A stretch of 28,179 nucleotides of DNA, from IMG/VR virus record IMGVR_UViG_2778261154_000006, positions 1 to 28,179 of that record; one strand, written 5' to 3'. Every line of letters begins with the position of its first letter. Position 1 is the first letter of the stretch. Under the pieces are notes generated by a model, which saw only the letters and a list, made by a program, of their open reading frames with translations, searched no databases and had not been told where the DNA came from. The position numbers and the translations under genes are program-made. This document shows, in pieces, positions 20,460 to 28,179 of this stretch. This DNA comes from a virus (lineage: Duplodnaviria > Heunggongvirae > Uroviricota > Caudoviricetes).

Positions 20460-20798
20460 ATGCAAAGCACCCCCCACAACTGGAGCGACTGGCTGGCGAT
20501 AATCAAAGACTGGTTACGTGGTGATATCCCTCTTGACAGTCTGCTGATGACTGCCGTCATTGCAGCACTCAGAGTGTTTTACACAGGCCGCAGCTGGCGT
20601 CGTCTTTTGCTTGAGGTGCCGTTGTGTTGCCTGCTGGCCGTGGCGGCATTCACCCTCATTAAGCCGGTCCCCGTCGCATGGCTGACCGAAGACTGGCGCG
20701 TCGGTATCGGTGCCGCAATTGGCCTTATTGGTGTTGAACATATCCGGGCACTGGGTGTGTTCATCACAAAGAAATTTGCAGGGAAAAGTGACGAATGA
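20460..20798 (+). CDS. holin (putative, multi-pass membrane protein)
   Basis: 112-aa ORF with hydrophobic segments (LLMTAVIAALRVF, LCCLLAVAAFTLI, IGAAIGLIGV) and a charged C-terminus. Overlaps the lysozyme gene start. Confidence 0.6.
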   Translation: MQSTPHNWSDWLAIIKDWLRGDIPLDSLLMTAVIAALRVFYTGRSWRRLLLEVPLCCLLAVAAFTLIKPVPVAWLTEDWRVGIGAAIGLIGVEHIRALGVFITKKFAGKSDE

Positions 20799-21238
20799 AA
20801 ATTTCAGACAACGGGCTGGCCGCACTTAAACGCGAAGAAAACTGCAAACTGACCGCTTACCCCGATCCGCGCGGCGTATGGACCATTGGTACAGGTCACA
20901 CAGGAAAGGTTGATGGTGTCGCAGTTCACAAAGGCATGACCATCACCCAGGACACCGCCGACAGACTGCTACGCGACGATCTGTCATGGGTGGAGCACTG
21001 CATCGCTGAACGGGTAACAGTTCCGCTGAACCAGAGTCAGTATGACGCGTTGTGTAGCCTGATTTTCAATATCGGCGCTGACGCTTTTATCGGTTCCACC
21101 GTTCGCCGTCAGTTAAACGCCGGCAACTACACCGCCGCCGCTGATGCTTTCCTGAAATGGAGCCGCGCAGGCAGTAACCCGACAATTCTGGCCCCGCGTC
21201 GCGGACGTGAGCGGGCAATGTTTCTGGGACAGAGGTAA
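20795..21238 (+). CDS. phage lysozyme / endolysin (GH24, lambda R / P21 R-like)
   Basis: GVWTIGTGHTGK matches the GH24 endolysin core (compare P21 R GVWTVCHGHTGK, recalled from memory). N-terminal E-x8-T context. Flanked by holin and spanin genes. Confidence 0.85.
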   Translation: MKISDNGLAALKREENCKLTAYPDPRGVWTIGTGHTGKVDGVAVHKGMTITQDTADRLLRDDLSWVEHCIAERVTVPLNQSQYDALCSLIFNIGADAFIGSTVRRQLNAGNYTAAADAFLKWSRAGSNPTILAPRRGRERAMFLGQR

Positions 21239-21244
21239 GGCCAC

Positions 21245-21709
21245 ATGAAACGCGCAACACTCGCCTTTATCGTCTTCATGGTCGTCGCCGTGGCCGTGCT
21301 CGGCTTCACAGCTGACTACTGGCACAACCGCTTCACCAGGGCAGAAAAAGCCCGCCAGAAAGCCGTAAATCTTGCCGACACCCGACAGCAGACCATTGAC
21401 GACATGACACTGCGTCAGCGCCAGAACGCCGCGCTTGATGCGAAATACACAAAGGAGCTCGCCAATGCAAAAGCTGAATCCGAAAAGTTACGCGCCGATC
21501 TTGCTTCTGGCCGTCGCCGGTTGCAGCTCCACGCCGTCTGTATGCCCGCCGCCACGCGTGATACCACCGCCACCGGCTCAACTGATGCAACCGCCGCCCG
21601 ACTTACTCCGGACGCTGAACGGGATTATCAGCATCTCAGAGCCGAAGCGAAAGCCGTCGTTGCACAAGTGAACGGCCTGCAACAGTACATTACTGAACAA
21701 TGTCATTAA
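21245..21709 (+). CDS. Rz: i-spanin (Rz-like)
   Basis: N-terminal transmembrane segment LAFIVFMVVAVAVLGF, then a charged coiled-coil-like periplasmic domain. Contains an embedded out-of-frame lipoprotein ORF. Confidence 0.8.
   Translation: MKRATLAFIVFMVVAVAVLGFTADYWHNRFTRAEKARQKAVNLADTRQQTIDDMTLRQRQNAALDAKYTKELANAKAESEKLRADLASGRRRLQLHAVCMPAATRDTTATGSTDATAARLTPDAERDYQHLRAEAKAVVAQVNGLQQYITEQCH
21465..21671 (+). CDS. Rz1: o-spanin (Rz1-like outer-membrane lipoprotein), embedded in the +1 frame of Rz
   Basis: AAGGAG SD 8 nt upstream of the ATG at 21465. Signal peptide plus lipobox LAVAGC. Proline-rich mature peptide (PPPRVIPPPPAQLMQPPP). Confidence 0.75.
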   Translation: MQKLNPKSYAPILLLAVAGCSSTPSVCPPPRVIPPPPAQLMQPPPDLLRTLNGIISISEPKRKPSLHK

Positions 21710-21712
21710 AAA

Positions 21713-22012
21713 ATGGCACCACTCACCGGGGAAAATAGCATGAAAGACGAAAATACCACCATCATCACCCTGACCGTCGCAGGCGAGGACATTCGCTTCG
21801 CCCCGACCGAAGCTGTCTACAACAAGTTCGTGAATGAAATAACGATGGATAACAAGGTGGCGCCAGCCAAAAACTACCTGATGCGCTGTGTACACCCGGA
21901 AGACAAAGAGAAACTGGAGAAGCTCATTCACCGCCCGGGAGCAGCCCTTCAGATGGCAGCAAAACTCAATGAAGATTTTGCCGTCAATCTGGATATCACC
22001 GTAAAAAAATAA
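21713..22012 (+). CDS. tail assembly chaperone (zero-frame product; G/E-equivalent)
   Basis: 99-aa ORF immediately upstream of the tape-measure gene. Ends in ...GTA AAA AAA TAA, i.e. a slippery A7 run directly before the stop. Confidence 0.6.
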   Translation: MAPLTGENSMKDENTTIITLTVAGEDIRFAPTEAVYNKFVNEITMDNKVAPAKNYLMRCVHPEDKEKLEKLIHRPGAALQMAAKLNEDFAVNLDITVKK

Positions 22013-22200
22013 AGGCGGCACTGTCCGGCATTGAGCGCAACGGCTACGCGCAATATCTGGTATTACGCCGCCACTGGCTACCGGATGGCGAGGACACACC
22101 GGAAGACATTGCCGCTGCGGTCTGGCTGGACAACCGTTATTTCGAAAACATGAGTATTGCCGTCAATAACGGCATTGCGAGAGCATTTAAAGGTGGGTAA
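21713..22200 (+). CDS. tail assembly chaperone, predicted -1 programmed-frameshift fusion product (GT/E+E'-equivalent), slip at the A7 run 22003-22009
   Basis: After a -1 shift on A AAA AAA, the frame is open for about 62 more codons (KKIKAALSGIERNGYAQYLVLRRHWLPDGEDTPEDIAAAVWLDNRYFENMSIAVNNGIARAFKGG). It stops at TAA 22198-22200, overlapping the tape-measure ATG at 22200. No ATG-initiated ORF covers this 188-bp stretch. Confidence 0.5.
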
Positions 22201-24284: not shown

Positions 24285-24623
24285 ATGAGTACGAAATCAC
24301 TTTATATCGACCTGCTCATTACTGACGGCGATCTTACGTTCAACTCCGCCAGTGAGCCGGTCTTGTGTGACAACCGCCAGAGTATTGCTCAGGACATGAT
24401 TCACGCCCTGATTGAAAGTGGTCTGCCCTGTCGTCTGATTGCGGAGAACAGCCCCACACTCAGGGCCGACCTGTTCACGCAAATGGTGATACTCCTGGAG
24501 GAGGATGAACGCCTCATTCCCGGCTCCGTATTTATTGACGAAGAGCAACGCGGCCAGCTCCTTGTTACCGCCGATACCTACGATTTTGGTCAGTTAAGCC
24601 AGGGGATGCGCTATGCAGAATAA
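24285..24623 (+). CDS. putative tail/baseplate protein
   Basis: 112-aa ORF between the tape-measure and baseplate J-like genes. Positional assignment. Confidence 0.4.
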   Translation: MSTKSLYIDLLITDGDLTFNSASEPVLCDNRQSIAQDMIHALIESGLPCRLIAENSPTLRADLFTQMVILLEEDERLIPGSVFIDEEQRGQLLVTADTYDFGQLSQGMRYAE

Positions 24624-25791
24624 TATCGACTTCAAAAACATACTGCGCGAAAGCGGAATGCCGGTTGATGAACAGACCGTACGTGACACCCTGCAACAGG
24701 TGGCAGATGATGAAAAACTCATCACCAATACGTCGCGCATGTCGCCATTCTGGCGGCTGATTCAGTTGCTGGTTATCACGCCGTATGTGTGGATTGTTGA
24801 CACACTGGCTGACAATGTACTGCATAATCTGTTTCTGATGACTGCCAGAGGGCCGTTCGTTGACCTGTTCGCTGCCGCCCTCAAGCTTACCCGCAAGGAA
24901 GCCACGCGTGCGATCGGTAAAATCATTTTTACCAAAAACAACCAGAATGACAGTGTGACCGTACCGGCTGGCACACTGATTCAGACGGAGCGTATTAACG
25001 GTGTGATTTATTCCATGGCGACCCGCGAGCAGGTAATTATCCCCGCAGGCACGCAAAGCACCCTTATTGATGTGATCGCCACCGACAGCGGTACGGCATT
25101 CAATCTGGCACCAGGCTATTACCAGATACTCCCCAAAGCGATTAACGGAATTGCGTCTGTACGTAACGGTGATAACTGGCTGACCATACCGGGCGCAAAC
25201 CGCGAAAGTGACGACGAACTGAAAGATCGTTGCCGTAACCAGTTTAACCTTGCCGGCAGTTATCACACTGACGCAGTTTACCGCAGCCTGATAGCTGCAC
25301 AGGCCGGACTGACCATCGATCGCATCTTCTTTTTACATGACGCCCCGCGAGGACCTGGTACAACTAATGCCTACCTGCTGCTGGATACCGGGGTTATTTC
25401 GCAACCCTGGGTTGACAGCGTGAATGATTACATCATGGCACAGGGACATCACGGCCACGGCGATGATATGCGTTGTTTTGCCATGCCGGAAACCCGCCAC
25501 GATCTGGCGGTTACGGTGTATGTTGAAAACCTTTCCAATATCAGCAAAAACGATATCGACGCCCTGAAATCAGGCACTGAAAACCTGATTCGTTGTGCAT
25601 TCCGTGAAAACAGTAACTACGACGTAACCCGCACATGGCCATACAGTCGCTTTTCATTCTCGCAACTGGGACGCGAACTGCATGACACCTTTCCTCTGGT
25701 GGGATCCGTGACGTTTTCCCTTGAGGATATCATCAGCGATCTGAACGTACCCCGCCTGAACACACTGACAGTTGAGGTGAAGAATGCCTGA
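24613..25791 (+). CDS. baseplate protein, J/gp47-like (putative)
   Basis: 392-aa ORF upstream of a gpI-like gene and the tail fibre. Size and position fit the baseplate J family. Confidence 0.5.
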   Translation: MQNNIDFKNILRESGMPVDEQTVRDTLQQVADDEKLITNTSRMSPFWRLIQLLVITPYVWIVDTLADNVLHNLFLMTARGPFVDLFAAALKLTRKEATRAIGKIIFTKNNQNDSVTVPAGTLIQTERINGVIYSMATREQVIIPAGTQSTLIDVIATDSGTAFNLAPGYYQILPKAINGIASVRNGDNWLTIPGANRESDDELKDRCRNQFNLAGSYHTDAVYRSLIAAQAGLTIDRIFFLHDAPRGPGTTNAYLLLDTGVISQPWVDSVNDYIMAQGHHGHGDDMRCFAMPETRHDLAVTVYVENLSNISKNDIDALKSGTENLIRCAFRENSNYDVTRTWPYSRFSFSQLGRELHDTFPLVGSVTFSLEDIISDLNVPRLNTLTVEVKNA

Positions 25792-26356
25792 TAAATCACC
25801 GGACATTAAGTTGCCGTCATGGCTGAATCGCGGCGATGTGCTCCGCCTGAAAAACACCTTTATCCGTTTCTGGGGAAAGGTGCACGACTGGGTAACATGG
25901 CCACTGAGCCAGACCGACCCACTGACATGTGCGGAATCCATTCTGAACCTGACAGCCTGGCAATATGATATAGCCCGTTTTGACGGCGAACCGCTCACGC
26001 TGTACAGAAAGCGTGTCAAATATGCCTTTATCAACGCACAGGACGCGGGCAGCGTGGCGGGATTCAGGGCAATTTTTGAACGACTGGGGATCGGTTATGT
26101 GGAGATTCAGGAGCGCCAGCCAGGCACAGACTGGGATGTTGTTCTTTTGCGCCTGACAGACAACCAGATCTCAGAAAATACAACATTACTCAATCAGATA
26201 ATTCGCCAGTACGGTCGCACCTGCCGCCGTTACCATCTTCAGATAATCACATCCACGGATTGTGTTATCGGACACGGATACTGGCATGGCAGCTATCACT
26301 ATTTTTATGCACCGGAGATGAAAAATGACCCAGAGCGCTATCACTTCAGCATTTGA
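25784..26356 (+). CDS. tail (baseplate) protein, P2 gpI-like
   Basis: Segment ILNLTAWQYDIARFDGEPLTLYRKRVKYAFINAQDAGSVAGFRAIFERLG parallels P2 gpI (LLPWLAWAFSVDRWDEKWPEATKRAVIRDAYFIHCHKGTIGAIRRVVEPLG, recalled from memory). Immediately upstream of the fibre gene. Confidence 0.55.
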   Translation: MPDKSPDIKLPSWLNRGDVLRLKNTFIRFWGKVHDWVTWPLSQTDPLTCAESILNLTAWQYDIARFDGEPLTLYRKRVKYAFINAQDAGSVAGFRAIFERLGIGYVEIQERQPGTDWDVVLLRLTDNQISENTTLLNQIIRQYGRTCRRYHLQIITSTDCVIGHGYWHGSYHYFYAPEMKNDPERYHFSI

Positions 26357-28163
26357 GCGCCTGAAAGCGCAGGAAGCCGCAGGCGGCAACCGTATCATCA
26401 TTGATCAGTTTGTATTTGCAAATATCCCGGATCTGAACATTGCCGACACGCCGTCTGAAAACGAACCATTGCCCCCCGATGCACAGATAGTTCACCGCCA
26501 GAACGTTGATCGCAACGGAATGGTAAATGAGAACACCGTCGCCTACTCCGTTACCCTGCCGGAGTCCACGGGTGATTTTACTTTTAACTGGCTGGGTCTG
26601 GTAAGCAGCACCACAAATACACTTTGTATGGTGGTATATCTTCACCCTCAGAAAAAAATAAAAACCGCAGACGGCAAACAGGGTAATACCCTGATTTATT
26701 CTGAAATTATGGAATACGCCGGAGCCAGCGCCGCAACCGGCATCACCACGCCAGTAAGCACCTGGCAGATTGATTTTACGGCACGGCTTCACGGCATGGA
26801 CGAGGCCACCCGCAAAGCGGCGCTGGATATCTACGGGCCTGGCCTGTTCTTTAATAACGCCTTTAAACTCACCGCTCAGGCTACCGGGCAGGCGACCTTC
26901 GCGCCGGGTATTGCCTATCTGCGCGGATTACGTGTGGAGCTGGATGAACAAGGCACACTGACATACGCCACCGGAATTTCACAAACTGTTTATGTTGACG
27001 CGGCATTAACCGGTACCCTGACCGGGGAAAATAAAGCCATATTCAGCCTGACGAGTCAGAAAACAGCCGACTATACCGACAGTTCAGGATTTGCCCATTA
27101 TGTCGAACCCATCGCCACAATATCAGACAGTGGCGAGATCACCGATATACGAAAAACCCGCAAACCATTAAATGACCGCCTTGATGGCGAATACCTGACC
27201 CGTAACGGGAACCTGAAAGAAATTGCTGACAAAGGTGAACAGGCCCAGTCTGATGCCAGAAAGCATATGGGCCTCGGCGACAGCGCCACCCTTAATGTTG
27301 GCACCGCGCAGGACACTGTAGCCGCAGGTGACGACATCCGCATCACAGGAGCGCTGCAAAAAAATCAGAACGGAGCAGATATTCCCGATAAACCGCTGTT
27401 TATCCAGAACGTTGGTTTACAGGAAACGGTAAACAAGGCTGATAACGCTGTCCAAAAGACAGGCGATACCTTGTCCGGTGGACTTACTTTTGAAAACGAC
27501 TCAACCCTTGCCTGGATTCGAAATACTGACTGGGCAAAGATTGGTTTTAAAAATAATGCCGACAGCGATACTGATTCATACATGTGGTTTGAAACAGGTG
27601 ACAACGGCAATGAGTATTTCAAATGGAGACACCGCCTCGCTGGCGGCCGGGTTAAAGACCTGATGAATCTCAAATGGGATACACTAAATATTCTGGTTAA
27701 TGCCGTCATTAATGGTTGTCTTGGAATTGGTACGACGAATGCGTTAGGTGGAAGTTCAATCGTTTTAGGAGATAACGATACCGGGTTTAAACAAAATGGC
27801 GATGGTCTGCTTGATGTTTATGCGAATGGACAGCGTGTATTTCGTTTCCAGAATGGCAGTATCCAGAGTAATAAAGCTGTAAACGTTACAGGACGGGTAA
27901 CACCGTCAGACTACGGAAACTTTGATGCCCGTTACCAGCAGCGAAATGGTGGCGTGCAGGATGTGCGGTATGGTTATGAAATGTATTACAACCCTGGCAG
28001 CAACACCGTTTCATGGACGTTTCGCTCACCTTCGGGACACGGGCTGTCAGGGATATCGATATCGGATACCGGCCGTAACTCAGCGGATAACGTCAACGGT
28101 GTGTATTACCGACCGCTGCAAAAACTGATTAATGGCACCTGGTATAACGTAGCGAGTATTTAA
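26325..28163 (+). CDS. H: tail fibre protein with P2 gpH-like C-terminal half
   Basis: 612-aa ORF. Residues about 365-612 (LQETVNKADNAVQKTGDTLSGGLTFENDSTLAWIRNTDWAKIGFKNNADSDTDSYMWFETGDNGNEYFKWR ... YRPLQKLINGTWYNVASI) closely match the C-terminal region of P2 gpH as recalled. The N-terminal about 360 aa is different. Confidence 0.85.
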   Translation: MTQSAITSAFERLKAQEAAGGNRIIIDQFVFANIPDLNIADTPSENEPLPPDAQIVHRQNVDRNGMVNENTVAYSVTLPESTGDFTFNWLGLVSSTTNTLCMVVYLHPQKKIKTADGKQGNTLIYSEIMEYAGASAATGITTPVSTWQIDFTARLHGMDEATRKAALDIYGPGLFFNNAFKLTAQATGQATFAPGIAYLRGLRVELDEQGTLTYATGISQTVYVDAALTGTLTGENKAIFSLTSQKTADYTDSSGFAHYVEPIATISDSGEITDIRKTRKPLNDRLDGEYLTRNGNLKEIADKGEQAQSDARKHMGLGDSATLNVGTAQDTVAAGDDIRITGALQKNQNGADIPDKPLFIQNVGLQETVNKADNAVQKTGDTLSGGLTFENDSTLAWIRNTDWAKIGFKNNADSDTDSYMWFETGDNGNEYFKWRHRLAGGRVKDLMNLKWDTLNILVNAVINGCLGIGTTNALGGSSIVLGDNDTGFKQNGDGLLDVYANGQRVFRFQNGSIQSNKAVNVTGRVTPSDYGNFDARYQQRNGGVQDVRYGYEMYYNPGSNTVSWTFRSPSGHGLSGISISDTGRNSADNVNGVYYRPLQKLINGTWYNVASI

Positions 28164-28179
28164 CAATGTTGCATTTAAA

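Follow-up and report, generated by a model that had tools for sequence, protein, structure and literature searches.

The window analysed here is a stretch of 28,179 nucleotides from a tailed virus (IMG/VR record IMGVR_UViG_2778261154_000006, positions 1 to 28,179), which corresponds to the whole of draft contig NJNE01000062.1 of the Escherichia coli assembly GCA_002467185.1 and carries most of a P2-family prophage. Close to its right end, the + strand encodes a tail fibre of 612 residues (WP_096971014.1; 26325-28163 including the stop codon). We found that this gene is an ordinary mosaic tail fibre gene with an exchangeable distal cassette, which is a long-known kind: that P2, Mu, P1 and lambdoid phages trade the distal parts of their fibres has been known since the early 1990s. 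With respect to gpH, the tail fibre of phage P2, we observed two mosaic breakpoints, and the gpH-like stretch is an internal block of 148 residues, not the distal 250. It is highly probable that the gene encodes a module-built fibre of a P2-family prophage from an enteroinvasive-type E. coli, and that swapping of its cassette changes host range.

By comparing the fibre with gpH taken from the P2 record (AAD03286.1), we obtained a single significant BLASTP alignment (E = 7e-97, residues 320-612, 86 gap columns; E = 1e-82 with tblastn). Plotted per 30-residue bin, the identity to gpH was 7-30% over residues 1-360, 73-93% over residues 361-510, 23-40% over residues 511-600 and 75% over the last 12 residues. 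An earlier note, made from the sequence alone, had described the protein as a chimera carrying a P2 gpH-type distal half on an unrelated proximal half, to be checked by such an alignment and breakpoint plot. The reading frame holds as it was described (+ strand, 612 codons from an ATG to a TAA at 28161-28163, with the same start called by PGAP in relatives), and the similarity is sharply non-uniform rather than uniformly low, so that the fibre is a true mosaic with sharp breakpoints. However, its distal half is not of the gpH type. Where about 250 C-terminal residues had been thought to match gpH closely, only 148 do: residues 364-511 align with gpH 380-526 with 129 of 148 positions identical, whereas the last 101 residues (512-612) share 37 identities (~37%) with gpH 527-669 across 78 gap columns, a gpH segment of ~56 residues being absent from the window fibre. 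The likeness to gpH in the distal variable region that would mark a P2-type receptor module was thus not found, residues 512-612 being both diverged and shorter. The sole match to P2 at the DNA level spans 27414-27856 (84% identity). The two motifs quoted in the earlier note are present, WFETGDNGNEYFKWR being common to the window fibre and gpH, and the terminal INGTWYNVASI having INGTWYNVAQV as its counterpart at the end of gpH.

The conserved distal block (residues 364-511; 27414-27857, + strand) is common to P2 gpH, Mu S and the fibres of Mu-like prophages, and it was found on unrelated proximal parts in gpH, in Mu S and in a 410-residue fibre of Mu-like prophage remnants. Residues 82-337 of Mu S (gp49, PDB 5yvq, whose Tfa is U, gp50) align with residues 290-523 of the window fibre (E = 8e-71), Mu S 82-184 corresponding to residues 290-377. 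The terminal part of Mu S (426-503) aligns with the terminal domain of the window fibre, and Mu S residues 338-423, like the corresponding segment of gpH, have no counterpart in the short tip of the window. Mu differs from the window by its baseplate-attachment end, and neither an invertible segment nor an invertase was seen in the window system.

The proximal half is a diverged homologue of that of gpH, as expected for another genus of the same family, because both proteins have a PF12571 domain and both genes lie downstream of gpJ- and gpI-type genes. In the window fibre this N-terminal domain covers residues 4-158 (26334-26798, + strand; E = 2.9e-27) and in gpH residues 1-151 (E = 3.2e-57), with a pairwise identity of ~24%, a level so low that BLAST misses the homology. 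It is followed by a lineage-specific shaft (residues 159-363; 26799-27413, + strand) without BLAST match to gpH, the last ~70 residues of which resemble the constant part of Mu S. Together, N-terminal domain and shaft are only ~23% identical to gpH. Hence the N-terminal ~360 residues are indeed different from gpH, as first proposed (7-30% per bin, no BLAST match), but they are not unrelated to it. Residues 1-366 are 40-45% identical to the fibres of the Irrigatiovirus-like phages SI7, SW3 and vB_YenM_324.

Directly upstream of the fibre gene are the baseplate genes, a gpJ-like gene (24613-25791, + strand; PF04865, Baseplate_J) and a gpI-like gene (25784-26356, + strand; PF09684, Tail_P2_I) which overlaps the fibre start by 32 bases, so that the order J-I-H-G is that of P2. 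The window thus shares with the gpH/gpG pair of P2 the PF12571 N-terminus, the place after gpJ and gpI, the conserved block, the INGTWYNVA motif and, immediately after the fibre, the start of a putative Tfa gene. The domain scan of the window fibre did not bring up the PF03406 repeats that gpH has. PF21446 (Gp34_trimer), recorded for the 612-residue protein, also matches gpH and a 668-residue form of the fibre described below.

The Tfa gene is a putative Tfa/gpG-type assembly gene of which only the first 14 bases are in the window (28166-28179, + strand; ATGTTGCATTTAAA, encoding MLHLK), the contig end at 28179 cutting it. Two bases separate its ATG at 28166 from the fibre stop. The cognate chaperone gene that had been expected just beyond the window therefore appears to follow the fibre but to start inside the window, and a complete PF02413 (Caudo_TAP) gene occupies the same position in relatives. 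Inspection of the sequence downstream of 28163 further indicates that this start is Mu-like and not P2-like: MLHLK is identical to the start of the 181-residue PF02413 Tfa of Mu-like loci, whereas P2 gpG starts with MQHLK and the Tfa of the P2 lineage (175 residues) with MMHLK.

We then looked at how the modules are combined elsewhere. In a database search, proteins with the same proximal ~360-375 residues (88-99% identical) turned out to carry at least five other distal modules; they have 724 residues (E. coli) or 581, 658, 670 and 688 residues (Salmonella) and differ in Pfam content. This bears out the module exchange that the earlier note had suspected. These proteins diverge from the window fibre between residues 357 and ~378, at or just after the peptide GADIPDKPLFIQNVGLQETVN, which is encoded by the gix-like DNA described below. 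In the window itself, breakpoints lie at 27414 with respect to P2, at 27461 with respect to a Mu-like prophage fibre, and at 27857/27858 between long and short tips. Six complete E. coli genomes carry a 97-99% identical prophage (CFSAN029787, VL40, VL46, RMDEC332, RMDEC364 and FDAARGOS_943), and patchworks exist among them: Mu-like loci have the same sequence as the VL40 block and, over 27976-28163, as the terminal domain of FDAARGOS_943. By comparing the fibre genes in 12 copies of the prophage each with the window, we counted 0-1 differences over the first 1075 bases, 2-48 over the next 397 bases and 19-34 over the terminal 273 bases. Fibre diversity is therefore confined to the distal cassette, and this jump after the gix-like site points to repeated gene conversion of the cassette.

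The left end of the cassette coincides with a relic site resembling the gix and cix recombination sites. This solitary site (27400-27425, + strand; TTATCCAGAACGTTGGTTTACAGGAA) matches at 23 of 26 positions the Mu sequence spanning the annotated boundary of the G segment, where no such match is expected by chance. Its right half-site is perfect, and the similarity to P2 begins there, at 27414. On the basis of this sequence match, we read the site as a probable fossil of the constant/variable junction of the invertible fibre genes of Mu and P1 type. A gix-like junction was reportedly noted for P2 H already in the 1992 paper on its sequence. In two Salmonella homologues, the peptide motif QxNQNGxDIPxKxxFxxNxG, the product of the gix-like DNA, is doubled in tandem at about residues 345-400, and these copies look like the footprint of successive cassette insertions.

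Beyond the conserved block, the window fibre carries a short tip (residues 512-612; 27858-28160, + strand), made of a 33-base link (27858-27890) and of the C-terminal domain ending with INGTWYNVASI. As far as 27857, two mismatches (at 27835 and 27848) separate the window from the VL40 prophage, an identity of 99.9%. Past 27857, the window has 33 bases where VL40 and the other copies have 201, and the remainder is 87-93% identical. The usual fibre of the prophage is accordingly a 668-residue protein, found in enteroinvasive E. coli (EIEC), E. coli and Shigella (WP_046880195.1, WP_151297224.1) in the same genomic context as in the window. It differs from the window fibre by 56 extra gpH-like residues between the block and the terminal domain, and is followed by the 175-residue P2-type Tfa starting with MMHLK. 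Residues 1-503 of the VL40 protein are identical to those of the window fibre, other copies have a few substitutions in the conserved block, and in the commonest 668-residue variant the terminal ~60 residues are identical to those of the window fibre.

The short tip was instead found in Mu-like loci. A Mu-like prophage remnant in the O121 strain 201805972 has a fibre that matches window positions 27461-28179 at 99.0% identity, and the loci syntenic with it in VL40 and CFSAN029787 adjoin ipaH3 and sitD. Identity reaches 100% between window 27836-28179 and the Mu-like locus of CFSAN029787, and between window 27791-28179 and the ipaHb-linked locus of VL40. All these Mu-like loci (O121, CFSAN029787, VL40) continue with the 181-residue Tfa starting with MLHLK, as the window does. 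Thus the 410-residue fibre of the Mu-like remnants beside ipaH genes (WP_000647602.1) has distal DNA 99-100% identical to the window and the same Tfa start, but its proximal part is entirely different and belongs with another baseplate type (DUF2612 and baseplate J genes). Homologues of the terminal domain (about residues 523-612) were found in Mu S (426-503) and in the phiTE short tail fibre (481-552), although the model of the latter (PDB 9cuy) covers only residues 3-92 and leaves the matched domain outside. Tips of the short type are also known from isolated Peduovirus phages, phiP27, Rac-SA53 and L-413C, at only 46-61% identity to the window tip.

The EIEC genomes O121 201805972, CFSAN029787, VL40 and FDAARGOS_943 each contain several Mu-like tail modules, mostly remnants, consisting of a short-tip fibre, a Tfa, a second fibre-like gene and a DUF4376 gene. 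In VL40 and O121, these modules lie directly beside genes for type III secretion effectors (ipaH3, ipaHb), and one of the fibres is split by IS2.

By analogy with other fibres, the PF12571 N-terminal domain would attach the trimeric fibre to the gpJ/gpI-type baseplate wedge, and the lineage-specific shaft would come next. The distal cassette would then begin at the relic gix/cix-like sequence, its first part, the block conserved in gpH and Mu S, probably serving as a structural and trimerisation element. The variable tip, by analogy with Mu and P2, would bind the receptor while folded with, and perhaps capped by, the Tfa encoded downstream; in Mu, Tfa stays bound on the LPS (lipopolysaccharide)-binding end of the fibre (PMC9608196, PMC7291167). 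Host range would shift when the cassette, or some portion of it, is replaced by recombination within conserved sequences. The window carries the short tip of the Mu-like ipaH-linked remnants instead of the long gpH-like tip of the other copies. Comparable mosaics, built on the same principle, are known from L-413C, P88 and pro147, whose gpH proteins combine a conserved proximal part with recombined distal regions setting host range (PMC7460101, PMC5285337), but whose proximal parts, unlike that of the window, are of the true P2 type; tip identity to the window fibre is only 46-60% in this group. Exchange of distal fibre parts has already been used to retarget P2 particles (PMC9594776, PMC9942202).

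As for its relatives, the receptor of this fibre is most likely an LPS sugar structure. The earlier note had gone further and predicted a P2-like specificity for the LPS core, taking the distal ~250 residues for the receptor-binding region of gpH. P2 does adsorb to LPS and has a C-terminal host-range region (PMC9594776, PMC9942202), and the strong identity to gpH over residues 364-511 together with the conserved C-terminal INGTWYNVA fits such a prediction. However, Mu S conserves this gpH-like block to the same degree over residues 361-450 and Mu-like prophage fibres have it in near-identical form, whereas residues 512-612, with ~56 residues fewer, are only 23-40% identical to gpH. The determinants of host range in P2-like phages lie in this distal variable part: in the P2-like coliphages P88 and pro147 they map to far C-terminal hypervariable regions (in the P88 fibre, residues 576-695 and 716-746), and host range alters when the 31-residue second region, HR2, is exchanged or single residues are replaced at two HR2 positions (PMC5285337). 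Moreover, the LPS terminal sugar used by the gpH of L-413C, likewise a P2-type mosaic, is a different one (PMC7460101). The fibre thus differs most from gpH where P2-like host range maps, and we consider adsorption to the LPS-core structure of P2 unlikely. P2's particular specificity is not predicted, because the gpH-like part is the conserved block and the part expected to set specificity is unlike gpH; receptor identity is not readable from similarity to P2, and a conserved block resembling that of gpH must not be taken as a sign of receptor specificity. Another possibility concerns the left breakpoint, where the gix-like site could belong to an active invertible segment of the Mu G or P1 C type alternating two fibre tips. 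Its 23 of 26 matches to Mu gix, its perfect right half-site and its position exactly at the constant/variable junction would be those of such a switch. Nevertheless, its central dinucleotide is TT instead of TC, and it stands alone: no second or inverted gix-like copy was found in the window nor in 6 kb downstream in a relative, the right half-site occurring once in each. In the relatives' prophage, the 6 kb downstream have no annotated Gin/Cin/Pin-type invertase and, on the opposite strand, no alternative fibre or Tfa genes, the window for its part stopping at 28179. With a single site, and with no inverted partner or annotated invertase within this range, we rejected an active switch, which we regard as extremely improbable.

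Several points weigh against reading the gene as that of a module-built fibre whose host range changes by cassette swapping. The roles of its individual modules are proposed from homologues. Among isolated phages, the closest tip belongs to Actinobacillus phage vB_Apl-pPE4, with 79% identity across 80% of the tip, and full-length matches reach only ~60%, so that no receptor can be transferred by homology. Finally, among ~15 billion proteins searched, the exact 612-residue combination was found on this one draft contig, and the long contigs and complete genomes examined all have the 668-residue form or a frameshifted derivative, apart from one locus without a called fibre gene; the short-tip form was in none. 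Fragments clustered with the 612-residue protein are likewise all tip pieces or pieces of Mu-like fibres, none of them joining a P2-lineage shaft to the short tip. These observations raise the possibility that the assembler joined the last ~345 bases (from 27835, the short tip and the Tfa start) to this gene through a repeat shared with a Mu-like prophage fibre of the same genome, in which case the real gene would be the 668-residue long-tip form with its 175-residue Tfa. The 374 bases of 27461-27834 are identical between the P2-lineage fibre of VL40 and the Mu-like fibre of O121, and would provide such a repeat. Each of the six complete genomes with the prophage has 1-4 other short-tip fibre loci, and one fragment of a Mu-like fibre matches the window protein at every position over the equivalent of residues 380-612. 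The 612-residue protein is a singleton while the 668-residue form is on >130 contigs, and many drafts break within the fibre gene (for instance in a 548-residue partial protein with 65 member sequences). The window, being a whole draft contig, ends 16 bases past the fibre stop and 345 bases past the switch, and its left end (1-77) is a high-copy repeat found at ~72,000 places, with a median of 10 per genome. This 77-base terminal repeat suggests a de Bruijn assembly with k = 77 broken at a repeat. We take it to be the end of IS1, the search itself showing only that it is a high-copy repeat. On the other side, among the loci compared none shares 28103-28179 while differing at 28102 or 28180 (contig-end test with k = 77), and these loci leave the contig end at 28179 unexplained. 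Natural patchworks between P2-lineage and Mu-like loci do occur in complete genomes, for which reason a real exchange is equally expected, and diversity among the prophage copies is concentrated in the distal cassette. On balance, we lean modestly towards a real exchange between resident prophages, while an assembly join would retain a substantial chance, somewhat short of even.

We give about an even chance to the reading in which the short-tip fibre is real and stems from a recent donation, whereby a defective ipaH-linked Mu-like remnant passed its tip and chaperone cassette by gene conversion to the intact P2-family prophage of the same EIEC chromosome. Cryptic prophages would then form a standing library of host-range cassettes, and the region past the relic site would form a hot spot of diversification. 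A genuine short-tip form would be a clean natural case of an intact prophage being re-equipped by a cryptic one resident in the same genome, and the natural pair of 612 and 668 residues would bear on the role of the ~56-residue segment. More generally, fibre ends in drafts of prophage-rich genomes can be chimeric.

The prophage is a member of the Peduoviridae, Irrigatiovirus-like and related to P2. Annotations of its relatives include a P2-family capsid, gpM and a replication endonuclease. Among classified phages that share its order of tail genes, the closest is Salmonella phage SI7 (Peduoviridae, Irrigatiovirus), with tape measure, DUF2590, baseplate J, gpI-like, fibre and Tfa genes in the same succession as in the window. 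In all six complete genomes bearing the prophage there are copies of IS600 and genes for ipaH effectors, both characteristic of enteroinvasive E. coli and Shigella. At the left end of the window, positions 78-400 match many E. coli chromosomes at 99% identity, in a region with a DUF2511/YebY-family gene and a membrane protein gene, indicating that this end is host DNA adjoining the prophage.

Two other regions of the window deserve mention. The lysis genes at 20460-21709 (holin, PF05106; lysozyme, PF00959; lysis protein, PF03245) are in an order unlike that of P2. They are flanked on one side by the chaperone/tape-measure genes and on the other by two genes (DUF2586 and HP1_Orf24-family, presumably sheath- and tube-like) that follow the major capsid operon. 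The ORF (open reading frame) of the tail assembly chaperone (21713-22012) ends with ...GTAAAAAAATAA, a run of seven A preceding the stop, and is followed in another frame by a DUF6890 ORF reaching the tape-measure start. This region (21995-22200) looks like the usual programmed frameshift of tail chaperones, of the P2 E/E+E' type.

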